Below the pieces are notes generated by a model. That model was not told the origin of the DNA and ran no database searches. It saw only the letters and a list, made by a program, of their open reading frames with translations. Made by a program: the position numbers and the translations under genes. This document shows, piece by piece, positions 30,793 to 54,330 of a DNA stretch of 64,000 nt; the first letter of the stretch is position 1; every line of letters starts with the position of its first letter. The stretch lies in NCBI RefSeq assembly GCF_041886205.1, contig NZ_CP169029.1; one strand, given 5' to 3'. This stretch comes from Escherichia coli. GTDB lineage: Bacteria; Pseudomonadota; Gammaproteobacteria; Enterobacterales; Enterobacteriaceae.

Positions 30793-30862
30793 TGTTACTA
30801 ACTCACTTCTATTCTGGTCACAGGTTTCCACCTGACAGACCCGCAATTTTCAGGACATTCTA

Positions 30863-31654
30863 ATGAATCAAATCGACCGTTTGCTCACTATTATGCAGCG
30901 CCTGCGCGATCCGGAAAACGGCTGCCCGTGGGATAAAGAGCAGACATTTGCCACCATTGCGCCTTACACCCTTGAAGAAACCTACGAAGTGCTGGACGCC
31001 ATCGCCCGTGAAGATTTTGACGATCTGCGCGGTGAACTGGGCGATCTGCTATTCCAGGTGGTGTTTTACGCGCAAATGGCTCAGGAAGAAGGGCGCTTTG
31101 ACTTTAATGATATTTGCGCTGCTATTAGCGATAAATTAGAGCGTCGCCATCCGCATGTTTTTGCTGATAGTTCTGCCGAAAACAGTAGTGAAGTGCTTGC
31201 CCGTTGGGAGCAAATCAAAACCGAAGAGCGCGCGCAGAAAGCGCAGCATTCGGCGCTGGACGATATTCCTCGTAGTTTACCGGCTTTAATGCGGGCGCAA
31301 AAAATCCAGAAACGTTGCGCCAACGTTGGCTTCGACTGGACGACGCTTGGCCCGGTGGTTGATAAAGTCTACGAAGAGATCGACGAGGTGATGTACGAGG
31401 CGCGGCAGGCTGTTGTCGACCAGGCTAAACTGGAGGAGGAAATGGGGGACCTGCTGTTTGCCACGGTTAATCTGGCTCGCCATTTAGGGACGAAAGCAGA
31501 AATCGCATTGCAAAAAGCGAACGAAAAATTCGAGCGTCGTTTTCGCGAAGTGGAGCGTATTGTTGCCGCGCGTGGACTGGAAATGACAGGTGTTGACCTC
31601 GAAACAATGGAAGAAGTCTGGCAACAGGTAAAACGGCAGGAAATTGATCTCTAA
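30863..31654 (+). CDS. mazG: Nucleoside triphosphate pyrophosphohydrolase MazG
   Basis: 263 aa, tandem MazG domains. Confidence 0.93.
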   Translation: MNQIDRLLTIMQRLRDPENGCPWDKEQTFATIAPYTLEETYEVLDAIAREDFDDLRGELGDLLFQVVFYAQMAQEEGRFDFNDICAAISDKLERRHPHVFADSSAENSSEVLARWEQIKTEERAQKAQHSALDDIPRSLPALMRAQKIQKRCANVGFDWTTLGPVVDKVYEEIDEVMYEARQAVVDQAKLEEEMGDLLFATVNLARHLGTKAEIALQKANEKFERRFREVERIVAARGLEMTGVDLETMEEVWQQVKRQEIDL

Positions 31655-31667
31655 GGGAATTACGCGG

Positions 31668-31709
31668 TCAAGCGCCATTTGTGTCATTTTTTAAATGACA
31701 AGCGCTTGA
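31668..31709 (+). terminator. Inverted repeat / probable terminator after mazG
   Basis: TCAAGCGC ... GCGCTTGA outer arms with inner TGTCATT / AATGACA arms, followed by TTTGCGTC. Confidence 0.4.
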
Positions 31710-31866
31710 TTTGCGTCAAAAACATTTACCCCAAAGGGGCTATTTTCTCACTCCTGATTTCAATAGTGCGCTGGCGAAGAGGAGGGATAATGAAAGTTTG
31801 TGGCACAGGTCATGTTCGGGTATACTGCTTTCCCGTCCTGGTTATTCCATCGTCTTTTCAACCTAA

Positions 31867-33519
<1,653 letters not shown>

Positions 33520-33538
33520 GTAAAAAAGTTAGAACGGC

Positions 33539-33566
33539 AACGCGTACCCTGGGTACGCGTTGTTTG
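33539..33566 (+). terminator. Hairpin / probable terminator between pyrG and eno
   Basis: Perfect palindrome AACGCGTACCC-T-GGGTACGCGTT followed by GTTTGTCTGG. Confidence 0.5.
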
Positions 33567-33591
33567 TCTGGAGTTTCAGTTTAACTAGTGA

Positions 33592-34905
<1,314 letters not shown>

Positions 34906-35282
34906 TCCTGTTCTTTAACTCTTAACGTAAAAACCGCTTCGGCGGCAATGCCGATCAGTTAAGGAGCGGTTGACTGATCCTTAAACTGCGGCACTATAAC
35001 GGCTTCCACTCCAGGGAGCCGTTTTCTTATGCCACTTCTCAATGATCTGTTCGCCGCATGAGCCTCAGCGCTGATGGCGAGGTCGGAGAAAAGGTCCTGT
35101 CGCGCAATGCCATTACTCAGGCCCGGCGACGGGTGGCACCGCGCCTCTGGAATGGCTCTTTCATCAGACGGCACAGATCCGGGGAGCAGAACATTACCCC
35201 AAAGATAGCTGGCGTGTATTACAGCCCTTTGTCGTGCACGGGGGACACCGGATAGCAGGAAGTCTGGGGTATATTGCTGGCC

Positions 35283-35370
35283 TACAATCTGATACGACGG
35301 AAAGCTACAAAGGCAGTAGAAAAGCATAAAAGAGTGCTGAAAGAAATCAGCTTCAAATTTGCCGTATCAG
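35283..35370. repeat. Direct repeat copy A flanking the PTS/porin module
   Basis: CTGATACGACGGAAAGCTACAAAGGCAGTAGAAAAGCATAAAAGAGTGCTGAAAGAAATCAGCTTCAAATTTGCCGTATCAG; similar copy at 41469-41554. Confidence 0.6.
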
Positions 35371-35566
35371 AAAGTAGATGAAATCAGACATTATCTAATA
35401 TTATATTTTGGTTAAAATAGATATCAGAATTTAGCTATCCAATCGGTTTAATAAAATGAACCCGATTAAGATTGCTATGTGCTGAATGTATTTCATTTAA
35501 ATATAAATTAAAAAGTCGCCAGCAAGCTTATTTAACAGAACCGATAAAATAAAAAATGATATAAAT

Positions 35567-36613
35567 TTAGAACCAAAATTCAAGACCGGCGCGGTAAAAA
35601 TAGTCATTACTTTCTGAATTATAGGCGTCAGTTCGACCAATACGGACATAAGGGAGAAAACCATTTTCCATATTCATCATTAACTGTAAAGACGTCACTT
35701 TATCGGCGGTGTCTTTCTGGGTGACATTGTCTATTTTATAATCATTATTTTTGGCATACCCTAGCTTAGCACCATAGATACCATGCCAGTATTCGCCAAT
35801 TAAACTATAGGCATCCTGGGTGCTTTTAACATGGGTAATAAGGTCGGTCGTTTGACCATTTTTATAGCCCGCGTAAAACCTCAGACCAAGATCTGTAATG
35901 GGTATCTCGAGGCCCAAAACATAACCAGAGGCATCCTCCAGATTGTCATTTAACGTGTCATCGGTCGGTTGAACTGATTTGTTGCGAGTTTCTTCATAAG
36001 CAACATGTACTTTCACTGTAGAGAACGGCGTCCAGGTTACCCGTGAGCTGTAAGTCGTCGATCCAGAAACCGTAGAATCATCGCGATTAACGCTGAGAAC
36101 CACATCAAATCCCCCATAGTCTTTTGTTGCAAGGCTACCGTCATAGCGCACCATATTCGACATGCGATTGCTTTGATGCCAATGAACGTCACCTCCCCAG
36201 TCAAAAACGCGACCGAGACCGGGGTTGGTATAAGGCCAGTCAATGATTTCGTATAACGCCCCCTTCATGCGGCCAAAGCGAAGTTTCCCATACTTACCTT
36301 CAAACCCCACAAAGGTATCAAACTTTCCCAGACCAGAGTCGTTGGCCTCATAACCAACATAACCACTTTCAATCTGGAATATAACATTTACACCTTCAGT
36401 TATTTCTTTGTTCCCGCGAAAACCAATATATGATTCGTTATCGAGAGTATAATCATAATTCCTTTCATTGGCCTGAGTGGTAAAAATGGACATGGCTAAT
36501 TTACCATAGATTTCCAGGTTAAAATCTTTTGGCCCTCCCACTTGCATTGCATTTACTATTGTAGGCATAGTCGTAAGCAAAGAAATGCAAATAATATTAC
36601 TTGTTTTATCCAT
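35567..36613 (-). CDS. Outer-membrane porin (OmpC/OmpF-type general porin family), PTS-associated
   Basis: 348 aa; signal peptide; N-terminal ...LEIYGKL... and C-terminal ...GLEFWF beta-barrel signature ending in Phe. Confidence 0.7.
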   Translation of the reverse strand: MDKTSNIICISLLTTMPTIVNAMQVGGPKDFNLEIYGKLAMSIFTTQANERNYDYTLDNESYIGFRGNKEITEGVNVIFQIESGYVGYEANDSGLGKFDTFVGFEGKYGKLRFGRMKGALYEIIDWPYTNPGLGRVFDWGGDVHWHQSNRMSNMVRYDGSLATKDYGGFDVVLSVNRDDSTVSGSTTYSSRVTWTPFSTVKVHVAYEETRNKSVQPTDDTLNDNLEDASGYVLGLEIPITDLGLRFYAGYKNGQTTDLITHVKSTQDAYSLIGEYWHGIYGAKLGYAKNNDYKIDNVTQKDTADKVTSLQLMMNMENGFLPYVRIGRTDAYNSESNDYFYRAGLEFWF

Positions 36614-36833
36614 AAGTTGCCCCAGTAATTTTATATCCGAAAAGAGTAAAACCCGCCTTCATGGAGGGCTGTATTCATTACGCCATGAAAGGGCGTATTA
36701 AAATCTTTAAAAAGAAGTCTTCTGCCAGTCCTGTGAGATTTAAATCCAAAGGCAATAAGACAGAGCCAAAACCAGTGGATGACCACGCCCATAGAACGTG
36801 GTTTTCAGTTGGCAATAAATATTGAAAATAGAA

Positions 36834-37691
36834 TTATTTAGTTCTATTGATAATGTCCAGTGAAGATATTATTTTCTCCACATTATCTCCCCGATTAATA
36901 AATAATAACGCATTGAATAAAACATCAACCATAAAACTTTGTGCAGCGGTAATCGTTGATGAATCTGACTGATAAGGATTTGACGTCCCACCCGTCAGTA
37001 AGACAACATCAGCGTACTGACTTAATGAGGAATGCTTTAGTTTACTAATAACAATAGTCATCGCCCCTTTCTCTTTCACTCTTCTTAACGCATCGACAAC
37101 ATCGCGCGTTTCACCAGAGTGTGAAATCGCAACCACCACATCCTTTTTCCCAACGTTGTTCGAATTTAAGGTCATGGTATGATTGTCGATCAGAGCATCG
37201 ACGTTTGCCATAATTCTCATGAATCGATATTTGGCATACAGGACGGATATGGCTGACATACCAATGCCGTAGAAATAAACCTGCCCCGCTTTGCTCAGAC
37301 CGTCAGCTGCACGCATTAGGGTCTGTTCCTCTTGCAGGGCAAGCGTTTCATTGATAACAACGTAATTATCATTAGCCAGCTGTTGTGCAATCCCTGTCAT
37401 GGAGTTCGTCTGCTCATCAAGAGAAATCACTTTTGATAACAATGTATCGTCTGTATCTGTTTCCAGGCGAAGAGTCGTCTTTAATTCTGAAAAGCCCTTG
37501 TATCCCAGCTTTTTACAAAACCGAATAATAGACGCCTCACCAACATTCATTGCATCCGCTAATTTTGCAATGCTCATATTGATGAATTGCATACGATTAT
37601 TTTTAATAAACTGGTAAATACGTATTTCAGTCTGGGTCAATTCATTAATTCTGGTGTTAATTAACGTGTTAAAGACGACTCGGGTTTTCAT
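36834..37691 (-). CDS. RpiR/MurR-family transcriptional regulator (HTH + SIS domain)
   Basis: 285 aa, N-terminal HTH (IAKLADAMNVGEASIIRFCKKLGYKGFSELK) and SIS sugar-phosphate binding domain. Confidence 0.8.
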   Translation of the reverse strand: MKTRVVFNTLINTRINELTQTEIRIYQFIKNNRMQFINMSIAKLADAMNVGEASIIRFCKKLGYKGFSELKTTLRLETDTDDTLLSKVISLDEQTNSMTGIAQQLANDNYVVINETLALQEEQTLMRAADGLSKAGQVYFYGIGMSAISVLYAKYRFMRIMANVDALIDNHTMTLNSNNVGKKDVVVAISHSGETRDVVDALRRVKEKGAMTIVISKLKHSSLSQYADVVLLTGGTSNPYQSDSSTITAAQSFMVDVLFNALLFINRGDNVEKIISSLDIINRTK

Positions 37692-37698
37692 TAAGTAC

Positions 37699-38004
37699 TC
37701 ACTCCATCTTTTTATAAACCTCTATCAATTCTGTCACAAGTTCACGGCAAAGCATACCTGTCATAAGGTGATCTTGGGCGTGAACCATCACCAGAGTGAT
37801 TTGCAGTTTACCTACCCCCTCATCCAGACCAATTAGCCGAGTCTGCACCTCGTGTGCCTGCCTGAAGGCATCGTCAGAAACCTTTAAAGAGGCTTCCGCT
37901 TCAGCAAAGCTCCCCGCTTTGGCGAACCTGAGCGCCTCCATGGCACAACTGCGACCTTCGCCAGCGGCGATAATCAGCGACATCACATCATTTTCATAGC
38001 TCAT
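37699..38004 (-). CDS. PTS lactose/cellobiose-family EIIA component
   Basis: 101-aa helical EIIA (ChbA/LacF-like). Confidence 0.8.
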   Translation of the reverse strand: MSYENDVMSLIIAAGEGRSCAMEALRFAKAGSFAEAEASLKVSDDAFRQAHEVQTRLIGLDEGVGKLQITLVMVHAQDHLMTGMLCRELVTELIEVYKKME

Positions 38005-38040
38005 TTAAATTATCTCGTGTTAGGTATCGGTGGATACGAT

Positions 38041-38352
38041 TCATTTTGATGAAATCAGATCAACGGCCTGTTGATACACTTTTTCACCATTCATAGCCCC
38101 ATACAGTAACGGGCTGATGGCCTCTGATTTCTTGCCATTCATTTCTGCCAGCTTTTGTATTTCCGTCAGCTTAAATCGAATCTGAGGCGCAACCAGTACG
38201 ACGTCATAATTCGCGATGACATCTTTCAGAACATCAACGCCGTGAGCTTCAATAACTGATTCATGGCCGACGGAATTGGCGTAATCTTTCATTCGCTTCA
38301 TTAACATTGAGGTAGACATTCCCGCAGCGCACACTAAAAGTATCTTATTCAT
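38041..38352 (-). CDS. PTS lactose/cellobiose-family EIIB component
   Basis: 103 aa, N-terminal MNKILLVCAAGMSTSMLM with active-site Cys. Confidence 0.85.
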   Translation of the reverse strand: MNKILLVCAAGMSTSMLMKRMKDYANSVGHESVIEAHGVDVLKDVIANYDVVLVAPQIRFKLTEIQKLAEMNGKKSEAISPLLYGAMNGEKVYQQAVDLISSK

Positions 38353-38376
38353 AGCAATTACCCGTCATTGATAAAA

Positions 38377-39921
38377 TTATGTCACAGTAATATGTAAACC
38401 ACTCATCCGCCGGAAAGGGGCGGAAATGGAAGTGATCGTAGGACTGCGGCCGTTAAAGCTATAGTGAATATTTTCCATCCAGGTCTTTTCGATTTCAGAC
38501 TTAATTTTATCGAACACCATCGTTTCCTTTTCTTCAAATGAGGAATAGCTCTGGCCAATTGAAGGTAAATATTCAAACTGAACAGGGAAGCGGACTTCGG
38601 TCTGGTAAGCCCAGTCCGATACCAGCCTTTCTTTTAAGAAACGTTCGATAGCGTCAGCATTATCGCCCATGGTCGAAAAGACAAGGTTCGCTATCCCCGT
38701 ACCTAACGAATTACACGTTGTGTTCCAGCCTGCGTAGCCCTTAATGGTATCGAGTGCGCCGGCTTTATCCAGCGCCCGAATAAGTTCAGTTTCACCGCCG
38801 TTTGACATCGCCACATCGATGACTACCACTGACACCTGCAAAGCTCTGCTGGCAATTTCTTTTGCATAGGTCACCAGGTCACGATGGGTGTAGTAAGTGA
38901 TATTTTTATACTTTGGCTTCCGCACACCGGTATGCAGGTTATAGCCATAGCTAATATCAAAAGCCTCCTGCATTATCTCACCGCACCCATTGATCGCTAA
39001 AACAGGCAGCGAGGCATCATTATCGACCAACGTTATACCCGACGCGGCTGCATACGAACGCAGTGAGTGTATAAAAGGACGATCTTCATAATTCGGGATA
39101 TAGGTTTTAAACAGTTCGTTTGAATAGAGTGTGGTGGCTATAAAATCCTTTTTCCTCATCGACAAATAGGCTTTGGTCAACAATGTGCATCCAGACTCAT
39201 CGGTGCCAGGATGAACAAACACCCGGTCCTGTACCCCAAGCAGGGATATCTTTTCGTAAATGCGTTCCTGATCCTGCATCGTAAAACCAAATTCCGCGGT
39301 ATCGTCCAGCGGGATTATCAGCTGATCGATAATCTTTTCATCAACGAGTTCTATCGCATTCTCAATGAGCTGCAGATTTTTACTTCTGCGCGACAGCCAG
39401 TCGTCAAAGGAAGCAGAATTAATAGCGGAACGATGTGCAAGCAGATGCGCTTTTTCGTCTTCGCTCAGCCCGACACGCTTCTCTTTGTCAGACAGATAAC
39501 CAACCTGAAAAATTGAATGCCCGATATGTGCATAGTAATCCGGTTCTTCTTCACTGGAATTATATTTTGGCGTACGTAGCACCAGTGAAGATGCATAAAT
39601 CTTAAGTGCCGGATAACTTTCTTTCAGTGTTTTAATTTTATTTAACCTTGCTATAAGCTCAGTTAATTCCATCTGATGAATACGCGCGGGAAAAAGTCCA
39701 CCGTAGAGATACATATCCAGGCTGATAATTAACGCATCGGAATCGGCACAGTGGCTGTTTATAAAGTCATCTACAGCCTGATGTGAAGCTGGTTGTTTTT
39801 TGTATCCTAAAATCTCTTTCGCTGGCATTTTTAACGAAATATTGCTGTCCATCGAGGCCAGAGAAATCAGGAAGTCATAGTTATAAGGTCGGATATCCAG
39901 AGGTATGCTAATTATATTCAT
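38377..39921 (-). CDS. Uncharacterised 514-aa protein inside the PTS operon (possibly DUF4127-like; family assignment tentative)
   Basis: Long ORF between IIC and IIB with 15-25 nt gaps; no signal peptide or TM segments evident; no glycoside hydrolase family 1 or 4 motifs recognised. Confidence 0.6.
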   Translation of the reverse strand: MNIISIPLDIRPYNYDFLISLASMDSNISLKMPAKEILGYKKQPASHQAVDDFINSHCADSDALIISLDMYLYGGLFPARIHQMELTELIARLNKIKTLKESYPALKIYASSLVLRTPKYNSSEEEPDYYAHIGHSIFQVGYLSDKEKRVGLSEDEKAHLLAHRSAINSASFDDWLSRRSKNLQLIENAIELVDEKIIDQLIIPLDDTAEFGFTMQDQERIYEKISLLGVQDRVFVHPGTDESGCTLLTKAYLSMRKKDFIATTLYSNELFKTYIPNYEDRPFIHSLRSYAAASGITLVDNDASLPVLAINGCGEIMQEAFDISYGYNLHTGVRKPKYKNITYYTHRDLVTYAKEIASRALQVSVVVIDVAMSNGGETELIRALDKAGALDTIKGYAGWNTTCNSLGTGIANLVFSTMGDNADAIERFLKERLVSDWAYQTEVRFPVQFEYLPSIGQSYSSFEEKETMVFDKIKSEIEKTWMENIHYSFNGRSPTITSISAPFRRMSGLHITVT

Positions 39922-39936
39922 GTGCTCTTTCTCTGA

Positions 39937-41259
39937 TTATTTCTGTTTATTCATGGCGAAAACAAATGGCAGATAAATGATAACCGACAAGCTGATTAAA
40001 AATACGGATAGCACCGCAGCTCTCCAGTCTCCTCCCGTAGCCAGGAAGGCGCTAATCACTGGTGGCGTTGTCCATGGCACAAGAACATATGTATGGTTAA
40101 TCAAATCCATTGCCGTCGCGGCATAAGCAATCACGATGCTGATAATCGGAGTGAATAAAAATGGTACAATTAGCACCGGGTTGAACATAATTGGCAAACC
40201 AAAAATGATGGGTTCATTTATGTTGAACAACATCCCAGGAGTTGCCAGACGAGTAATCGCACGATGCTCTGATTTTTTCGCTGCAATCCATAAAGCAATC
40301 AGTAAGCCGATTGTCTGGCCTCCGCCGCCCATAAATCCAAAGGCATCGATGAACGGTTTTGTGACGATATGTGGGATTTCAAGGCCAGCCTTAAACGCGG
40401 CAGTATTTTCCTGAATCGCCACCAGCAGGGTTGTCTCAGTAATAGGGTACATGATACTGGCACCATGGATCCCTGCCCACCATAATCCGTTTTGCGTCAA
40501 AAGTAGTCCTATTACTCCGCTCAGACCCTGTAAAATATTTTGCAGCGGAGCCTGAATCATCAGAGTAACGATTTCATGTATGTTTTTGTTGAAGAGACTG
40601 CTTAACGACCATGCAAAGAGACTCAGCAAGGTTAACACCAGGATCATCGGTATTAATACGTTAAAGCTCCTTGATACGGAGGGGGGAACTGAATCAGATA
40701 AAGTAATTTTCAATTTAGATGAGGCCGAAACTTTGCGAAAAAGTTCAGTGGAAATAAGCGCCACAAATATGCCTACAAACATACCAGACGCGCCACTTTC
40801 ATTGCCGCTGATTAGCCCCGAAACCTGAAAAACCTCGCCCGTCGGCGCTGTAACGGGAATGGTGACCGGGAACAAAACAAATAAACATGCCAGTGAGAAG
40901 ATGGCATACGTTATCCCATCCTCGCCATAGCTGTTGGCTAATCGATATGAAATCATCACCGTTGCCAGAAAGGCGAGAATATTCAGCGTTCCGTTATAGA
41001 CGCGGATGCCAATTTCCTGTAGGTGGCGAACCCATGCGCCTTCCAGCCCCAGAAAACCGACTAAACCGGATTCGCCGTTGAGCAATACATTATTTATTAA
41101 TATAAATAGAGACGCAGCAATAATTAAAGGCATGAGCGCGACAAATGATTCCCTCACTGCCGAAAGATGTCGCTGTCCTGAAAAATCGCCCGCCCAATTA
41201 GAGATCTTGTCAATGAAAACAAGACCACTCCCACTTTTAATTTTATTGATGAAATTCAT
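39937..41259 (-). CDS. PTS lactose/cellobiose-family EIIC permease
   Basis: 440-aa polytopic membrane protein, ChbC/CelB-like. Confidence 0.85.
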   Translation of the reverse strand: MNFINKIKSGSGLVFIDKISNWAGDFSGQRHLSAVRESFVALMPLIIAASLFILINNVLLNGESGLVGFLGLEGAWVRHLQEIGIRVYNGTLNILAFLATVMISYRLANSYGEDGITYAIFSLACLFVLFPVTIPVTAPTGEVFQVSGLISGNESGASGMFVGIFVALISTELFRKVSASSKLKITLSDSVPPSVSRSFNVLIPMILVLTLLSLFAWSLSSLFNKNIHEIVTLMIQAPLQNILQGLSGVIGLLLTQNGLWWAGIHGASIMYPITETTLLVAIQENTAAFKAGLEIPHIVTKPFIDAFGFMGGGGQTIGLLIALWIAAKKSEHRAITRLATPGMLFNINEPIIFGLPIMFNPVLIVPFLFTPIISIVIAYAATAMDLINHTYVLVPWTTPPVISAFLATGGDWRAAVLSVFLISLSVIIYLPFVFAMNKQK

Positions 41260-41468
41260 ATAAGAAAATCTCGCGCCCTAGATATTAGTTTCAGCGTATT
41301 TTATTTATCCCCTTTCGTAATACTGTTAGCTTTGTCACAAAACTCCAAAAATTCCAACTAAAATGATACTAAATGGAGTTTTTTTGGTTTTGTAATCTAC
41401 CGTTCTGGAGTCTGGTATTAACAATAAAAGCGGCTTTCGCAGGAGGATAAATCATCAGCATTTGTCCA

Positions 41469-41554
41469 GACAAGCTGATACGACGGGAAGCTATAAAGGT
41501 ACAGAAAAGCATAAAAGAGCGCCGTTAGAAATCAGCTTTAAATTTGCCTTTCAG
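41469..41554. repeat. Direct repeat copy B flanking the PTS/porin module
   Basis: CTGATACGACGGGAAGCTATAAAGGTACAGAAAAGCATAAAAGAGCGCCGTTAGAAATCAGCTTTAAATTTGCCTTTCAG; roughly 80-85% identical to copy A by eye. Confidence 0.6.
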
Positions 41555-41759
41555 TTTATACAACAGAAATGATAGTGCCGGGAAACACGTCGTCGCCGGG
41601 AATGCTCCCAAGAGACTGGAGTATCGGAGGGGAAACCTGGAAGCGCTGTTCATAACAAAACGCCCCGACCGTCAAGGCCGCGGGTGGTGAAGATATCAAA
41701 ACGTCCATGCTGTTCCGCTTAAGTGAACGGCATTGCGCTGCAGTGGGTTTTTTATGCCT

Positions 41760-42584
41760 TCAAAGTAGTAGCGGTAGGGTCGCACTCGCCGTTTGCTGGC
41801 TCACATCGTTGTACTTTTCATCCAGTCCAAACAGCGACGTGGTGAGCAGTTCCACCAACAGCATGACACCAACCTTGGCGTTTAGCGCGCCAGCACTCAA
41901 CGGACCTTCTGGTTTGGCTGCGACCAGTTGAATATCACTCAGCGAAGCCAGCGGACTATGCGGTGTATTACTCAGCGCCAGTATGCGTACACCTTGCTTA
42001 CGCGCCAGTTTAACCACATGCAGCAGATCGCGTGTGGAGCCTGAACTGGATATTGCCACTACCAGCGTGTCTTTGCTTAGCGTTGTAGCGTTCATAGCAG
42101 CACGGTGCATGTCGCTGAACAATTGCGCGGGTTTGCCGAGGCGCAGGAGTTTGTAATGTAAATACTCTCCCAGAATAGCGCTGGCCGCTACGCCATAAAT
42201 TTGTACCGACTGAGCCTGATGCAGCGCCAGAGCGGCTGCTTCCAGTAATGTTCTGTCGAGTAATTTTGCCGTGTCCTGCAGCGCTTGCACGGATTCATTG
42301 ACGACATTGTCAATCTCATCACCGCTGCGCTCTACCAGCTCTCCTTGCCGGAGATCGAGTGCCAGCGCCATCTTAAATTCGTTATAGCCCTTACACCCCA
42401 GCGTACGGCACAGACGTGTGACGCTCGCCTCGCTGGTGTCGCTTTCACGCGCCAGTTCGGTAATCGTCAGGTAGACCACTCTTGCCGGATCGCTAAGCAC
42501 AAACTCTCCCAGCTTCTGTTGAGTTCGACTATATCCATCAACGCTCTGGCGCAATCTCAGCAGTAGGTTTTCATTTTCTGACAT
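41760..42584 (-). CDS. RpiR/MurR-family transcriptional regulator (second copy)
   Basis: 274 aa, HTH + SIS domain; divergent from the EIICB gene. Confidence 0.8.
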   Translation of the reverse strand: MSENENLLLRLRQSVDGYSRTQQKLGEFVLSDPARVVYLTITELARESDTSEASVTRLCRTLGCKGYNEFKMALALDLRQGELVERSGDEIDNVVNESVQALQDTAKLLDRTLLEAAALALHQAQSVQIYGVAASAILGEYLHYKLLRLGKPAQLFSDMHRAAMNATTLSKDTLVVAISSSGSTRDLLHVVKLARKQGVRILALSNTPHSPLASLSDIQLVAAKPEGPLSAGALNAKVGVMLLVELLTTSLFGLDEKYNDVSQQTASATLPLLL

Positions 42585-42749
42585 GCAAAATCCTTAATGC
42601 GTTTCTCTGCCGATAGTGTGGCGGAAAGTAGGGGAGAGATGCTAGTCATTTTAAAAAAGTATGATCGGTGCCCTGGTTTTTGATGGTAATTTTCATTTTT
42701 ATAATTAGTTGTGGTAAAAATTTTCATCAAAGAGCGGGGAGATGAAAAA

Positions 42750-44306
42750 ATGATGCAAATATTTAGCGGCGCTTCGTCAGGCGCATGGTTTGAAAAAGCG
42801 CAGCGGTTCGGCAAATCGTTCATGCTGCCGATTGCGGTATTGCCCGCAGCGGGGTTGTTGTTGGGGATTGGTGGGGCTCTGTCGAATCCCAATACGCTGA
42901 CGGCCTACCCATTCTTGAATGTCGACTGGCTGCAGGCAATTTTCACGATCATGACCAGCGCAGGTTCTATCGTGTTTGCCAACCTGTCGGTGCTTTTTGC
43001 GGTTGGTGTTGCCGTGGGACTGGCGAAAACGGATAAAGGCACGGCGGGCCTTGCGGCATTGCTGGCTTTTCTGGTGATGAATGCCACCATCAATGCTTTG
43101 TTAACGCTCAACGGAACGTTGGCGCACGAAAATCCAGGTGCTGTGGGCCAAGGGATGACGCTGGGCATTCAGACGCTGGAAACGGGCGTTTTTGGCGGGG
43201 TCGTGATTGGTCTGGTCACCTGCGCACTGCATAACCGTTTCAATAAAGTCTCACTCCCTCAGTTTCTTGGCTTTTTCAGTGGTTCGCGTTTTGTACCGAT
43301 TATCAGTTCGCTTGCCGCGATTGTAGTGGGGGTGATCATGACGGTGGTATGGCCGCATTTCCAGAAGCTCATTTTTGGACTGGGCGGTCTGGTGGATGCG
43401 ACGGGCTATCTGGGGACGCTACTGTATGGTTTCATTCTGCGTATGCTTGGCCCACTGGGTTTACACCATATCTTTTATTTGCCGTTCTGGACAACAGCGC
43501 TGGGAGGGAGCGAAATCGTCAACGGTCAACTGGTCGAAGGCACCCAGCGTATTTTCTTTGCCCAACTTGCCGATCCGAATACGCAGCAGTTTTATGCCGG
43601 TACCTCGCGCTTTATGTCCGGGCGCTTTATCACCATGATGTTTGGCCTGCTTGGCGCATGCCTCGCGATGTACCACACGGCAAAACCGGAGAAGAGAAAG
43701 CTTGTCGCCGGACTGCTGTTGTCGGCGGCCCTGACTTCTTTCCTGACGGGCATCACTGAGCCTATTGAGTTCTCCTTCCTGTTTGTGGCTCCGGTGTTAT
43801 ATGTCATTCACGCCTTCTTCGATGGTCTGGCGTTTATGATGGCGCATATTTTACATATCACTATTGGGCAAACCTTTTCGGGTGGACTGATCGATTTCCT
43901 CCTCTTCGGCGTGCTACAGGGGGAAGCGAAAACCAACTGGATGTACGTCCCCTTGGTTGGGGTTCCGTGGTTCTTTCTTTACTACTTCACCTTCCGTTAT
44001 TTGATTAACCGTTTTAACTGGCTGACGCCCGGGCGCGAGAACACAGCCCAGGTGGAGTCCGGTCTGCCTCAGAGCGAACGCGCAGCGGCAGTCATCGCCG
44101 GACTGGGAGGCAAAGAGAATCTGGAAGAGGTGGACTGTTGCGCCACACGCTTACGCGTGACGGTGAAAGAGAGCAGCAAGGTAGATGAAGCTGCGCTGAA
44201 AGCGACCGGAGCGCGTGGCGTAATTATTCGCGGCAACGGTGTTCAGGTGATTTATGGCCCGCATGTCACCATAATTAAAAATGAAGTCGAAGAGATCTTA
44301 TCATGA
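42750..44306 (+). CDS. PTS glucose/N-acetylglucosamine-family EIICB component
   Basis: 518 aa; N-terminal polytopic EIIC, C-terminal EIIB with CATRLR phospho-Cys motif; ATG 42750 with GGGGAG RBS (ORF track starts at GTG 42711). Confidence 0.8.
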
Positions 44307-44995
44307 TGAAAACTGTACTGGATTCCCTGAAAGGTAAACTAATTGTCTCCTGCCAGGCGCTGGAAAATGAACCCCTGCACAGCCCGTTTATTATGTCGCG
44401 TATGGCGCTGGCGGCAGCGCAGGGCGGTGCGGCAGGTATCCGTGCTAACAGCGTGGTAGATATTCGCTCGATCAAAGAGAGCGTCTCCCTGCCGGTAATA
44501 GGGATTATCAAGCGTGATTATCCGGGCTGCGAGGTGTTTATTACGGCCACTTTGCAGGAAGTGGATGAGCTGATGACCGTTGAGCCGGAAATTATTGCTC
44601 TGGATGCGACAGCGCGCCCGCGCCCCGGTGGGCAAATGCTGGAAGAGCTGGTTATGCAAATCCGTGTCCGCTATCCGTCCGTACTGCTGATGGCGGATAT
44701 CGCCACCGTCGATGAGGCGGTAACAGCCGAGCGGCTGGGTTTTGACTGCGTGGGCACCACGCTCTATGGCTATACCGCGGACACTGCCGGGCATGTAATG
44801 GTGGATAACGACTGCGGTTTTTTACGTGAGGTGTTGGCGGCGGTCACAATACCGGTCGTGGCGGAAGGTAATATCGATACCCCGGAACGCGCCGCACGTT
44901 GCCTGGCATTAGGCGCGCATACCGTGGTGGTTGGAGGCGCTATCACGCGTCCGCAGCAGATAACGGCACGATTTGTCGCGGCGATCGCCTCGTAA
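44303..44995 (+). CDS. Putative N-acylmannosamine-6-phosphate 2-epimerase (NanE family)
   Basis: 230 aa, [14 protein letters not shown]... and ...GTTLYGYT... resemble NanE; start overlaps the EIICB stop. Confidence 0.65.
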
Positions 44996-45066
44996 AGCAT
45001 CGATGGGGCATGATACTTTGGCGGGGATCTGCGATAATTAACGTTTATCCCCATATTGAGAGCGCT

Positions 45067-45738
45067 ATGCAGTACCCGATTAACGAGATGTTCCAGACCC
45101 TGCAAGGTGAGGGTTACTTTACCGGCGTCCCCGCCATTTTTATTCGTTTACAGGGATGCCCGGTTGGCTGTGCCTGGTGCGACACCAAACACACCTGGGA
45201 AAAGCTTGAGGATCGGGAAGTCTCCCTTTTCAGCATTCTGGCGAAGACCAAAGAGAGTGATAAGTGGGGGGCGGCGAGCAGTGAAGACTTGCTGGCTGTC
45301 ATTGGTCGCCAGGGATACACCGCGCGGCATGTGGTGATTACGGGGGGGGAGCCTTGCATTCATGATTTGCTGCCACTGACTGACCTACTCGAAAAGAACG
45401 GTTTTAGCTGCCAGATCGAAACCAGTGGTACTCATGAAGTACGCTGCACACCGAATACCTGGGTTACCGTATCGCCAAAGCTGAACATGCGCGGCGGCTA
45501 TGAAGTGTTGTCACAGGCACTGGAGCGAGCCAACGAAATCAAGCATCCTGTGGGGCGCGTACGCGATATTGAAGCACTGGATGAACTACTGGCAACGCTG
45601 ACCGATGATAAACCGCGAGTCATTGCACTGCAGCCGATTAGCCAAAAGGATGATGCCACACGATTGTGCATTGAAACCTGTATTGCGCGTAATTGGCGTT
45701 TGTCGATGCAAACACATAAATATTTAAATATTGCCTAA
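45067..45738 (+). CDS. queE: 7-carboxy-7-deazaguanine synthase
   Basis: 223 aa from MQYPINEMFQTLQGEGYFTGVPAIFIRLQGCPVGCAWCDTKH (radical-SAM CxxxCxxC variant); ORF track start 44899 is an upstream extension. Confidence 0.9.
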   Translation: MQYPINEMFQTLQGEGYFTGVPAIFIRLQGCPVGCAWCDTKHTWEKLEDREVSLFSILAKTKESDKWGAASSEDLLAVIGRQGYTARHVVITGGEPCIHDLLPLTDLLEKNGFSCQIETSGTHEVRCTPNTWVTVSPKLNMRGGYEVLSQALERANEIKHPVGRVRDIEALDELLATLTDDKPRVIALQPISQKDDATRLCIETCIARNWRLSMQTHKYLNIA

Positions 45739-46077
45739 TTACACATTTATAAGCGTTATAAATGGGTGGAACTTGTAAAGAATTCCACTCATTTGTATTA
45801 TTTGTCGCCCCTGAAAACTCATCCATCTTGCCCATCCCGGACTAATCATTATCATTCTCTACAAATTCTGCGGCGTTAATTTTTCGCTGGAGTGAAAATT
45901 ATTGCGGCGAAGTTTGGTAGATTTTAGTTTGTATAGAGTTATTTTAAATATTTACCTTTTTAATCAAAAGATTAAGTGCTCTTTAACATAATGGATGTGT
46001 TGTTTGTGTGATACTGTAAAGTTGGTAGATTGTGACTGGCTTAAAAAATCATTAATTAATAATAGGTTATGTTTAGA
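45739..46077 (+). promoter_or_regulatory. AT-rich CRISPR leader region
   Basis: About 340 bp of AT-rich non-coding DNA directly upstream of the first repeat. Confidence 0.6.
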
Positions 46078-46350
46078 GAGTTCCCCGCGCCAGCGGGGAT
46101 AAACCGTTCGCTGGCAATCCACTCAGGAATTTCGGGAAGAGTTCCCCGCGCCAGCGGGGATAAACCGGGCAGTACCGACATGGACGGTCACCACGAGTTG
46201 AGTTCCCCGCGCCAGCGGGGATAAACCGTGTATAGCGCCAAAATTGACGAAAGACATGTTGAGTTCCCCGCGCCAGCGGGGATAAACCGGTTGTAGCTGA
46301 CAATGTAAATCATGGATTTACGAGTTCCCCGTGCCAGCGGGGATAACCAT
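46078..46350 (+). CRISPR. Type I-E CRISPR array: 5 repeats (last degenerate), 4 spacers of 32 nt
   Basis: 29-bp repeat GAGTTCCCCGCGCCAGCGGGGATAAACCG at 46078, 46139, 46200, 46261; degenerate GAGTTCCCCGTGCCAGCGGGGATAACCAT at 46322. Confidence 0.95.
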
Positions 46351-46360
46351 TCAGGTATGT

Positions 46361-46930
46361 TCAGGCCGGGCAGTTTCCCGCCCGGCCTTCCTCACTTACG
46401 CATTCGACCAGCTCTGGATCGAATCCGCATTCCCCATGCATCACTTCATACGATTTTTTCAGTATTACATCATTATGTTTGGTTAGGTCTTTGAAAATGC
46501 CTTTATTCATCGCGTCGTAGCGTTTGGCATTGCTCTCAATCGGTATAAAGATATCTTTCACGCGAACCATTTTGTCGACAGCCGTTGCGTAATCCGGGTA
46601 TAGTCCCAGACCTACCGCCGTATTAATCGCTGCCCCCAGACTTGCACAACCGTTAATGGCGTTACGTCGTGCCGGAAGGTTGAACATGTCGGCAAAAATC
46701 TGCATAAACAGATCGCTGTTCGAACCGCCGCCAGTAATGATCACATGCTTTGCAAAGTGATTCATTTCATTACGCATATTGTCGTAATTGTTCTTCAGCG
46801 TCAGAGCCACGCTTTCCAGTATCGAACGATATATCCATGCGTAACGCGCAAGCGCTGCCTGCAATACCGGCACCAATAATAATAATGTCGCAGTCATCTT
46901 CCGTGTCATACCCCAAATATCCAGACTCAA
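46361..46930 (-). pseudogene. ygcE: 3' remnant of an FGGY sugar kinase gene (ygcE-like), 5' part deleted
   Basis: C-terminal FGGY motifs (ARYAWIYRSILESVALTL..., IITGGGSNSDLFMQIFADMFNLPARR) in a 189-codon ORF; a full FGGY kinase is about 490 aa; N-terminal 30 residues look out of frame. Confidence 0.65.
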
Positions 46931-52635: not shown

Positions 52636-54063
52636 GTGACTTTCTTTGATTTCTGGGGAAAAAACCGACGCGGCGAGAAAGAGGGCGGCGACGACTATCA
52701 TCTACTTTGCTGGCATTCGCTGGATGTAGCCGCGATGGGCTATTTAATGGTTAAAAGCAATTGCTTCGGGCTGGCTGACTATTTTCGTCAACTAGGTTTC
52801 GATGATACGGAGCAGGCAGCACAATTTTTCGCCTGGCTATTGTGCTGGCACGATATTGGAAAATTTGCCCGCTCTTTTCAGCAACTTTATCTGCATCCAC
52901 AACTCAAGGTTCCGGAAGGCGCAAGAAAAAATAACGAAAAGATCTCTCATTCAACGCTGGGTTACTGGTTGTGGAATCATTATTTAATTGAATGTGACGA
53001 GTTGCTTCCTTCCTCTTCACTCTCTCCCCGCAAACTTAAACGGGTAATAGCGATGTGGATGCCCATGAGCACGGGGCATCATGGTCGCCCACCTGACCGT
53101 ATTGATGAACTGGATAATTTTCTGCCTGAAGACAAAGTTGCCGCGCGAGATTTTCTCCTTGAAATCAAGTCACTGTTCCCGCTCATAGAGATCCCCACAT
53201 TCTGGGATGATGACGAGGACGTTGAACTTATAAAACAACTTTCCTGGTATATCTCTGCAACCGTCGTACTTGCAGACTGGACAGGATCGTCAACGAGATT
53301 TTTTCCACGCGTCGCACACCCAATGGATATTAAAGATTACTGGCAGAAGGCTTTAGTGCAGGCTCAAAACGCCTTAACCGTCTTTCCTCCAAAAGCAGAA
53401 ACCGCACCTTTCACCGGAATTAATACACTGTTTCCTTTTATTGAGAATCCGACACCGTTACAGCAAAAGGTGCTGGAACTGGATATCAGCCGGCCCGGGC
53501 CACAGTTATTTATTCTGGAGGATGTAACCGGCGCAGGTAAAACAGAAGCGGCGCTTATCCTGGCGCACAGGTTGATAGCTGCGGGGAAAGCTCAGGGGCT
53601 GTTTTTTGGTCTGCCAACAATGGCAACGGCCAATGCCATGTACGATCGGCTGGTCAAAACCTGGCTTGCTTTCTATTCGCCAGAATCCCGCCCCAGCCTG
53701 GTGCTGGCACACAGTGCCCGCACATTAATGGACCGCTTTAATGACTCACTCTGGTCCGGTGATTTAGTCGGGTCAGAAGAACCGGATGAACAAACGTTCA
53801 GTCAGGGATGTGCAGCCTGGTTTGCCGACAGTAACAAGAAGGCTTTACTGGCTGAAATTGGCGTCGGCACGCTGGATCAGGCGATGATGGCAGTGATGCC
53901 GTTTAAACATAATAATCTGCGGCTTCTGGGGTTGAGTAACAAAATCCTGCTGGCTGATGAGATCCACGCCTGTGACGCTTACATGTCGTGCATTCTTGAA
54001 GGGCTGATCGAGCGGCAGGCGCGTGGCGGAAACAGCGTTATTTTGCTTTCTGCTACGTTATCT
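52636..54063 (+). pseudogene. cas3: 5' fragment of type I-E cas3 (HD nuclease domain and helicase motifs I-III), truncated at a CRISPR repeat
   Basis: HD motif (CWHDIGKF), Walker A (TGAGKTEA), DExH (LLADEIHACD), SAT (LLSATLS); reading frame then runs directly into the repeat at 54064; about 476 codons, roughly half of a full cas3. Confidence 0.8.
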
Positions 54064-54214
54064 GTGTTCCCCGCGCCAGCGGGGATAAACCGCCATTCTT
54101 GTTGTCGTTCATCAAGCGCAGGGGGTGTTCCCCGCGCCAGCGGGGATAAACCGGGTAAATAACACAGCGTTTGAAACAGGCAAAAGTGTTCCCCGCGCCA
54201 GCGGGGATAAACCG
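54064..54214 (+). CRISPR. Type I-E CRISPR array remnant: 3 repeats, 2 spacers, no leader
   Basis: GTGTTCCCCGCGCCAGCGGGGATAAACCG at 54064, 54125, 54186 with 32-nt spacers; directly abuts the cas3 fragment. Confidence 0.92.
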
Positions 54215-54330
54215 GCGCAATACGGTGCGGTTTTCCCGGAAGTAAACCGGGCGCACTGGATGCGATGATGGGTATGACTTAGAATTCCCCGCCCCTGCGG
54301 TAGAACTCCCAGCTCCCATTTTCAAACTCC

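Follow-up and report, generated by a model that had tools for sequence, protein, structure and literature searches.

What are two similar stretches of about 80 bp doing on either side of a six-gene sugar-uptake cluster in Escherichia coli? They lie in a 64,000-nucleotide stretch of contig NZ_CP169029.1 (hereafter called the window), and a sequence-only reading had taken them for either the duplicated 3′ end of a host gene or the end of a decayed mobile element, marking the boundaries of an insertion. We conclude with considerable confidence that the repeats are overlapping leftovers of a decayed IS4-type insertion sequence (IS) at the terminator between eno and rpiR, the two halves of which enclose an acquired module.

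The two direct copies, first read at ~35283 and ~41469, are indeed present. Alignment with MAFFT, and BLASTN of copy A with its flanks against the whole window, place them as follows.

35284–35363, plus strand: repeat copy A, transposase codons ~356–380, in frame
41470–41548, plus strand: repeat copy B, the same transposase codons ~356–380, frameshifted and with stops

The copies align in the same orientation over 80 bp with 86.25% identity (10 mismatches, 1 gap, E = 5e-21), and the next best BLASTN matches to copy A and its flanks within the 64 kb have E > 0.6. The E value of 5e-21 rules out chance similarity, for which an identity below 70% had been named as the sign; the estimate by eye was 80–85%, and the measured value is 86% over 80 bp. 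The ends proposed by eye, 35370 and 41554, lie ~7 bp beyond the real ones. After ...AAATTTGCC, copy A runs into GTATCAG, which is module DNA, as it aligns with the flank of the module in L067, an unrelated enterobacterial contig, and the ‘TCAG’ common to both copies is therefore coincidental. Translation agrees that copy A is the end of an open frame (...QEVWGILLAYNLIRRKATKAVEKHKRVLKEISFKFA, then VSESR* encoded by module DNA) and that copy B has indels and stop codons and needs a frameshift to be read. We also considered whether the inverted repeat at the ends of copy A (35282–35296 and 35363–35377) might be a fold-back scar or MITE-like end, and rejected this: the right arm belongs to the module itself and recurs in L067.

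The repeat is part of a transposase gene. An intact 445-residue plasmid transposase, used as a tblastn query, matches only two fragments, A (residues 1–7, 74–140 and 345–380) and B (residues 356–432), and detects no further IS fragments inside the module.

34946–35363, plus strand: IS fragment A, with the left terminal inverted repeat (CAATGCCGATCAGTTAAGG), the transposase start, residues ~74–140 and residues 345–380
41470–41735, plus strand: IS fragment B, from transposase residues 356–432 to the right terminal inverted repeat (...CTTAAGTGAACGGCATTG)

The transposase start in fragment A is MPLLNDL, at 35029. BLASTN against a near-full-length relative (in L003) maps this fragment to IS positions 1–110, 305–469 and 1117–1223, with two internal deletions at about 111–304 and 470–1116; fragment B maps to ~1145 through to the end. 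When plasmids were searched with the whole 6.8-kb query, it matched one 1,441-bp IS4-family element in four colinear pieces. The IS termini are at 34946 and 41735, within terminal inverted repeats (34945–34963 and 41718–41736) of 19 nt that are 89% complementary. What remains of the IS is dead and lies in two halves: A runs from the left inverted repeat to ~IS 1223 and B from ~IS 1145 to the right inverted repeat. Both keep ~codons 356–380 of the transposase gene, and this shared stretch is the ~80-bp direct repeat. In place of the complete ORF of an intact ~1.4-kb element there are the two internal deletions, stops, a frameshift and a 6.1-kb split. RefSeq (PGAP) annotates 41475–41722 as an ‘IS4 family transposase’ pseudogene and leaves fragment A unannotated. 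The decayed mobile element was thus the better of the two original proposals, both copies being pieces of an IS4-family transposase gene. The repeat is neither the 3′ end of a host gene nor the end of the element: it is internal to the transposase gene (residues 356–380 of 445), and the element really ends in the inverted repeats, at 34946 and 41735.

The family assignment rests on several features. Against the model NF033592 ‘IS4 family transposase’, whose cutoff is 115, the protein of the reference relative reaches 251 bits, and the ends of the window IS (CAATG...TTA) match the IS4-subgroup signature -AATR--------WTW. Elements of this subgroup have such ends, lengths of 1400–1650 bp and direct repeats of 10–13 bp (De Palmenaer et al. 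2008, PMC2266710 Table 1). The DDE transposase match, the terminal inverted-repeat signature and an 11-bp target-site duplication were all found here, and the reference copies L003 and L066 (1429 and 1430 bp) each have perfect 11-bp duplications. Like IS4-subgroup elements, the window IS has a single DDE transposase ORF (NF033592), a length of ~1.43 kb, -AATR--------WTW ends, an 11-bp target duplication and insertion into a GC-rich hairpin; unlike intact ones it is dead and lies in two overlapping halves parted by 6.1 kb of cargo. E. coli relatives include a pseudogene between adhE and tdk (insZ/ychG of K-12) and a copy adjoining silE; F-type plasmids carry an intact one (WP_033809097.1). Fragments A and B are 83–86% identical to each other and 65–74% identical to any other family copy found, and they belong to a divergent sublineage, at ~65–74% DNA identity to other E. 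coli copies. A protein search for an intact transposase of this sublineage returned only partial relics, at most 80% identical. A further ‘IS4 family’ pseudogene, adjoining a paralogous rpiR unit in HH45, is an unrelated, IS10-like relic.

Where, then, are the boundaries of the insertion? Comparison with Citrobacter (L063–65), in which eno, a 55-bp terminator and rpiR follow one another without interruption, locates them. BLAST alignments of L064 to the window stop at 34945 and resume at 41736, overlapping by exactly 11 bp.

34935–34945, no strand: left 11-bp target-site duplication, CGCTTCGGCGG, within the eno terminator hairpin
41736–41746, no strand: right 11-bp target-site duplication, CGCTGCAGTGG; the T-run half of the eno/rpiR terminator comes next

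The two flanks are identical at 8 of 11 positions, and differ by 1 and 2 mismatches from the sequence that the empty site carries once (CGCTGCGGCGG). The inserted block, 34946–41735, comprises 6,790 bp: the left part of the IS, the six-gene PTS/porin module and the right part of the IS. The IS inserted into the bidirectional terminator between eno and the convergent rpiR-ptsG-nanE operon, with the 11-bp duplication typical of this IS4-subgroup element. An Rfam scan of 34800–41900 gave no match. The boundaries are consequently the IS termini and the 11-bp duplication, not the repeats, and the Citrobacter empty site, at which one copy had been expected to remain, holds neither. This already refutes a site-specific integration of an island, in which the repeats would be att-like or a duplicated host-gene end. 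Direct repeats bracketing a low-GC island would suit that reading. However, the repeat is transposase coding DNA, its copies are 14% diverged in unequal contexts, and ORFs, RefSeq and Pfam reveal no integrase within or beside the module; we regard the reading as extremely improbable. Since the module sits between the IS halves, it came in together with the IS or by way of it, rather than in an integrase/att event. The earlier observation that the locus has no intact transposase or integrase is correct.

The cargo itself is the six-gene PTS/porin module described from sequence, with all six genes on the minus strand; the evidence consists of ORFs, RefSeq annotation, Pfam labels and NCBIfam.

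35364–41391, minus strand: low-GC cargo module, six genes, ~38–48% GC compared with ~51–53% in the flanks
35567–36613, minus strand: porin
36834–37691, minus strand: RpiR-family regulator
37699–38004, minus strand: PTS IIA
38041–38352, minus strand: PTS IIB
38377–39921, minus strand: DUF4127 protein
39937–41259, minus strand: lactose/cellobiose-family IIC
41392–41469, no strand: 78-bp segment between the conserved right boundary of the module and fragment B, beyond the L067/L069 homology

The module is a foreign, horizontally acquired sugar-uptake cluster of lower GC. It is 82–87% identical to counterparts in two other contexts, one next to pheV (L067) and one at yceI/bapA (L069). Homology to L067 begins at 35362, and homology to both contigs stops at ~41382–41391. 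The left joint between IS and module (...AAATTTGCC|GTATCAG...) shares only 2 bp and is an illegitimate junction. BLASTN against L003 and tblastn detect no IS similarity in the 78-bp segment at the right. A literature search on DUF4127 found no papers.

The module is rare in E. coli. It occupies eno-rpiR in 9 of 5,426 complete E. coli genomes, a metagenome scan with a repeat-specific pattern returned two contigs only, both from this locus, and the exact IIC protein lay at eno-rpiR in all the contexts read. The IS-module unit was not found at a second site or on a plasmid in the complete E. coli genomes, metagenomes, IIC contexts or plasmids. In this rare lineage the eno-queE segment is Citrobacter-like DNA; the 4-fold-site divergence from the Citrobacter empty-site lineage is 0.08–0.12, and the divergence between A and B is of that order.

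Module-less E. coli variants keep one repeat copy or parts of both, and are secondary deletions, either IS1-associated (L055 and L061) or simple (VE-T9). Because an IS1 replaces 35217–41304 without a duplication in L055, L058 and L059, these are secondary deletions. VE-T9/XJ5.2 are not empty sites; they retain copy A and ~150 bp of module flank, followed by a deletion into the ptsG-like gene. L061 (GCA_052260635.1) has A-type sequence to 35362, an IS1 with the 8-bp AAATTTGC on either side, and B-type sequence from 41540, the two AAATTTGC flanks falling at homologous positions of A and B. We seriously considered L061 as the ancestral unsplit relic, but its flanking SNPs and CRISPR content group it with lineages that once carried the module. 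It is probably derived by secondary deletion, because its flanking SNP blocks and CRISPR pattern are common to the module-deletion derivatives (the L055 group and VE-T9).

How did the module come to lie between the two halves? The most likely route, to which we give a little under an even chance, is a composite IS-cargo-IS unit. The module would have been bracketed by two copies of the same IS, and the unit inserted by its outer ends. Later deletions would have removed the inner part of each copy, and the surviving pieces, since diverged by ~14%, would happen to overlap by 80 bp. As expected of a composite transposon, the whole unit lies between the outer copies of one target duplication. Two other internal deletions are seen in the same relic. 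The fragments are partial, overlapping and in direct orientation, and the genomes examined hold no complete IS copy. The composite step is an inference, because no genome was found in which a full IS copy stands on each side of the module, nor one with an unsplit IS lacking IS1 at eno-rpiR. Against this route, a small overlap of two independent truncations has a prior of only a few percent. The divergence of ~14–15% between A and B is at, or slightly above, what neutral change allows for copies still identical once the Citrobacter empty-site lineage had split off, and the unit was found at a single site, not at different sites or on different replicons, with no sign of having moved as a unit.

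The overlap requires no coincidence if a single IS inserted alone in the terminator and decayed, and the module later entered its transposase gene by recombination, a sequence of events that we consider possible but somewhat less probable than the composite route. Overlapping halves are built into this model, either as an illegitimate insertion with a staggered duplication of ~80 bp, or as homology-facilitated or Campbell-type recombination in which the incoming DNA carried the module beside a 5′-truncated copy of a related IS. In the latter case copy A would be resident and copy B would come from the donor, and their 14% difference would be older than the event. A and B together make one colinear IS with one inverted-repeat pair and one target-site duplication, and 2 bp of microhomology at the left joint is what one side of homology-facilitated illegitimate recombination should leave. 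L061, moreover, resembles an unsplit relic hit by IS1. Nevertheless, given the SNPs and CRISPR shared with the L055 group and VE-T9, L061 is most simply a secondary deletion, and an unsplit relic without IS1 was not found. RecA-type recombination over ~190 bp at ~85% identity is very inefficient, and a purely illegitimate insertion has no reason to choose a 1.4-kb relic.

A third, unlikely route is that the module already lay inside the IS elsewhere, and that this 6.8-kb, transposase-dead unit was moved into the eno terminator by the transposase of an intact copy. The intact-looking outer inverted repeats and the 11-bp duplication around the whole 6,790 bp would fit, and passenger DNA inside IS4-family elements is known for the IS231 subgroup (PMC2266710). 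However, the 11-bp duplication is equally compatible with the composite and single-IS routes, the unit was found at one site only, and the transposase of the A/B sublineage is represented by the partial relics described above.

Tn10 and Tn5 are composite transposons built from the IS4-family elements IS10 and IS50. As in composite transposons, the locus has cargo between two pieces of one IS, here in the same orientation, with intact outer inverted repeats and a single flanking target duplication. In contrast to Tn10 and Tn5, both of its IS pieces are incomplete, with inner ends gone, and it has no working transposase and was not seen at a second site; its pieces are also direct, whereas the IS copies of Tn10 and Tn5 are inverted. 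Mobile insertion cassettes and passenger-carrying IS231 likewise enclose non-transposition genes within IS ends. IS231 elements keep an intact transposase gene and carry their passenger DNA between it and the left inverted repeat (PMC2266710), whereas the cargo in the window breaks into the transposase gene within its 3′ part, and some of the gene is present twice. The ~80-bp direct repeat at the borders of the inserted segment also recalls IS1634/IS1549, whose insertion creates long variable direct repeats of 8–514 bp, as cited in PMC2266710. We rejected this parallel: there are no IS1634-type transposase or inverted repeats at the module ends, and the copies are 14% diverged.

The locus bears the scar of a mobile element, which is nothing unusual, and reveals no new type of repeat; today the A/B repeats presumably have no function except as short homology. 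The main value of the analysis lies in annotation and a correct reading of the locus: the unannotated fragment A (34946–35363) belongs with the annotated IS4 pseudogene at 41475–41722, and the boundaries are the IS termini and the 11-bp duplication. Outside this rare E. coli lineage, the PTS/porin/DUF4127 module is seen only in other enterobacteria. The locus opens no new biological question, but it serves as a clean example of cargo brought into a terminator hairpin by an IS relic. If the unit was moved in trans, the idea of mobile insertion cassettes and passenger-carrying IS elements would apply not only to IS231 but also to the IS4 subgroup of enterobacteria, here with an entire PTS/porin catabolic module as the cargo.

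The repeats that bracket the PTS/porin module are real. MAFFT and BLASTN both place copy A (35284-35363) and copy B (41470-41548) in the same orientation, and BLASTN against the window aligns them over 80 bp at 86.25% identity with one gap (E = 5e-21); no further copy in the window reached E < 0.6. As the sequence-only reading had it, the reading frame is kept in copy A and broken in copy B. It also located the repeats correctly, but drew both about 7 bp too long. Past ...AAATTTGCC, copy A runs into bases GTATCAG.... Their alignment with the module flank of an unrelated contig shows that these bases belong to the module.

Both copies are parts of an IS4-family transposase gene. We mapped them on L003, a near-full-length relative that adjoins silE in strain FJ_Ec_21:

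34944-35053: fragment A, piece 1; IS 1-110, 95% identity
35049-35213: fragment A, piece 2; IS 305-469, 70% identity
35256-35362: fragment A, piece 3; IS 1117-1223, 74% identity
41470-41755: fragment B; IS 1145 to the right end, 74% identity

Fragment A is the left end of the IS with two internal deletions. With its frameshift repaired, the L003 protein scores 251 bits on the NCBIfam model NF033592 'IS4 family transposase' (cutoff 115), and the intact 445-residue transposase of L066, from an F-type plasmid, finds by tblastn solely residues 1-7, 74-140 and 345-380 in fragment A and 356-432 in fragment B. In a plasmid collection, the 6.8-kb query was matched only by single 1,441-bp IS4-family elements, in four colinear pieces. 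RefSeq annotates an IS4-family pseudogene at 41475-41722 and leaves fragment A without annotation. The 'repeat' is therefore the overlap (about IS 1145-1223, codons 356-380) of the left and right halves of a single IS sequence.

Terminal inverted repeats of 19 nt (89%) lie at 34945-34963 and 41718-41736. The reference copies L003 (1,429 bp) and L066 (1,430 bp) start CAATGCCG and finish CGGCATTG, each between the two copies of a perfect 11-bp duplication: CCCCGTCAGGG at L003 2492-2502/3932-3942 and CCCGCTTCGCG at L066 1347-1357/2788-2798. De Palmenaer et al. describe an IS4 subgroup with ends -AATR--------WTW, lengths of 1400-1650 bp and direct repeats of 10-13 bp (PMC2266710); this IS fits that description in end sequence, size and duplication length. 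In the window, the 11-bp flanks outside the IS ends, CGCTTCGGCGG (34935-34945) and CGCTGCAGTGG (41736-41746), are identical at 8 of 11 positions. In all three insertions examined the target is a short, GC-rich hairpin or a palindrome resembling a terminator (CCCCGTCAGGG, CCCGCTTCGCG, CGCTGCGGCGG), which suggests that this IS prefers terminator stem-loops.

An empty site exists in Citrobacter. Three loci (L063-65), reached through variants of the neighbouring nanE-like protein, have the order pyrG-eno-(55 bp)-rpiR-ptsG-nanE-queE-queD-cysJ, and their eno/rpiR intergenic sequence ...gtaaaaacCCGCTGCGGCGGGtttttttatgcc... is a bidirectional terminator. L064 2342-6439 aligns with window 30845-34945 and L064 6429-10434 with 41736-45739. 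These alignments overlap by 11 bp, the target duplication, each window copy of which is one or two bases off Citrobacter. Accordingly, 34946-41735 (6,790 bp) is one IS-bounded insertion. The earlier proposal was that the repeats mark the insertion boundaries, one copy perhaps remaining at an empty site. The Citrobacter site contains neither copy; the insertion is delimited by the IS termini and not by the repeats.

The surrounding chromosome is that of E. coli (relA-mazEFG-pyrG-eno ... queE-CRISPR-queD-cysJ). Identity to Citrobacter L064 is 94.7% across window 41736-45739 and 83-84% for relA and cysJIH, four-fold-site divergence is 0.08-0.12 for rpiR/ptsG/nanE versus 0.31-0.44 for eno and pyrG, and the eno stop codon is the exact point where most E. 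coli depart from the window. On these grounds the segment from the eno stop to queE (34906-45739) is imported, Citrobacter-like DNA, and looks like a replacement of the variable eno-queE region. E. coli HH45 has a 90%-identical rpiR-ptsG-nanE unit (L005 4242-5000) in another island, one with enterotoxin and IS remnants, and there a different, IS10-like IS4-family relic ends at the same terminator position beside rpiR. The full 10-kb stretch occurs in 9 of 5,426 complete E. coli genomes; strains wlxctx60 and 6EVA are 100% identical to the window over 33500-43500. Two CRISPR repeat arrays lie nearby, one annotated in RefSeq (46078-46350) and one (~54063-54220) inferred only by cross-similarity to the first; spacers vary between related assemblies. 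Adjoining the array is a FGGY-family carbohydrate kinase pseudogene (~46400-46850; locus L001 16897-17344), frameshifted and missing its N-terminus according to RefSeq.

Between the IS halves GC falls to ~38-48%, against 51-53% outside:

35364-41391, minus strand: module of a Porin_4 porin, an RpiR regulator, PTS IIA, IIB and IIC (lactose/cellobiose family) and a DUF4127 protein
38377-39921, minus strand: coding region for DUF4127, within the lactose/cellobiose-type PTS operon

No NCBIfam model matched the DUF4127 protein, and a literature search found no paper mentioning DUF4127. Its nearest relative is 46% identical among ~100,000 species (one genome each); a larger protein collection contains relatives at 86-87%, whose contigs have all six genes in unchanged order. 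One, L067, has the module beside tRNA-Phe/yqgA/speC and pgaABCD (speC region 77% identical to E. coli), and another, L069, beside yceI, an ECF sigma gene and bapA. The module is known from at least three enterobacterial contexts, without a recombinase of its own. DNA homology extends over window 35362-41391 in L067 and 35413-41382 in L069; both modules lack the ~164 bp that separate the porin gene from the rpiR-like gene here (36650-36813), a stretch that had no Rfam match. The left joint, ...AAATTTGCC|GTATCAG..., is an illegitimate junction at which IS and module share only 'CC'. All three contexts agree on the right boundary, ~41391. Between it and fragment B, a stretch of 78 bp (41392-41469) found no match and may be a leftover of the module's previous context.

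By what route did the module end up between the IS halves? We tentatively favour a composite: an IS-cargo-IS unit would have inserted via its outer ends and then lost the inner IS ends on both sides through deletion. Erosion of this kind did occur here, as the two further internal deletions in fragment A attest. A and B are each other's closest relatives (83-86% identity) and are only 65-74% identical to the silE, plasmid, adhE-tdk and nanS-adjacent copies, which are 91-98% alike; derived changes are present in both copy A and copy B. Their ~14% difference, and that of 3 in 11 between the target duplications, are of the same order as the neutral divergence relative to the empty-site lineage of Citrobacter. 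Decay in situ of two once-identical copies is possible, but lies at the upper limit. Somewhat less probable is a single IS split later, either through an insertion or because incoming DNA with a truncated, related IS took part in homology-facilitated recombination; this route accounts for the overlap of the halves without coincidence. Mobilization of a cassette in trans is a minor possibility. No intermediate turned up in complete E. coli genomes, in the contexts of the exact rpiR or IIC proteins or on plasmids, nor in a scan of metagenomes, whose two matching contigs both represent this locus.

E. coli variants without the module arose secondarily. In VE-T9 and XJ5.2, fragment A is still present with ~150 bp of module flank, followed by a deletion into the ptsG-like gene; in L055, L058 and L059, IS1 replaces 35217-41304. 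Other assemblies have IS1 or ISEc52 within the module. In L061 (GCA_052260635.1) the module is gone: the sequence follows A to 35362, passes into IS1 and resumes with B at 41540. AAATTTGC borders IS1 on either side, and IS1 sits exactly between homologous positions of copies A and B (window 35355-35362, 41540-41547). Insertion of IS1 into an unsplit relic fits this arrangement, but L061 has SNP blocks and the CRISPR pattern in common with the deletion derivatives, so that a deletion associated with IS1, joining homologous sites in copies A and B, is more likely. Either IS1 target preference may have acted twice, or a deletion mechanism may have used the two copies.

The repeat is what is left, in two overlapping parts, of a single decayed element of the IS4 subgroup, of a well-known kind and already half annotated, as fragment B, in RefSeq.
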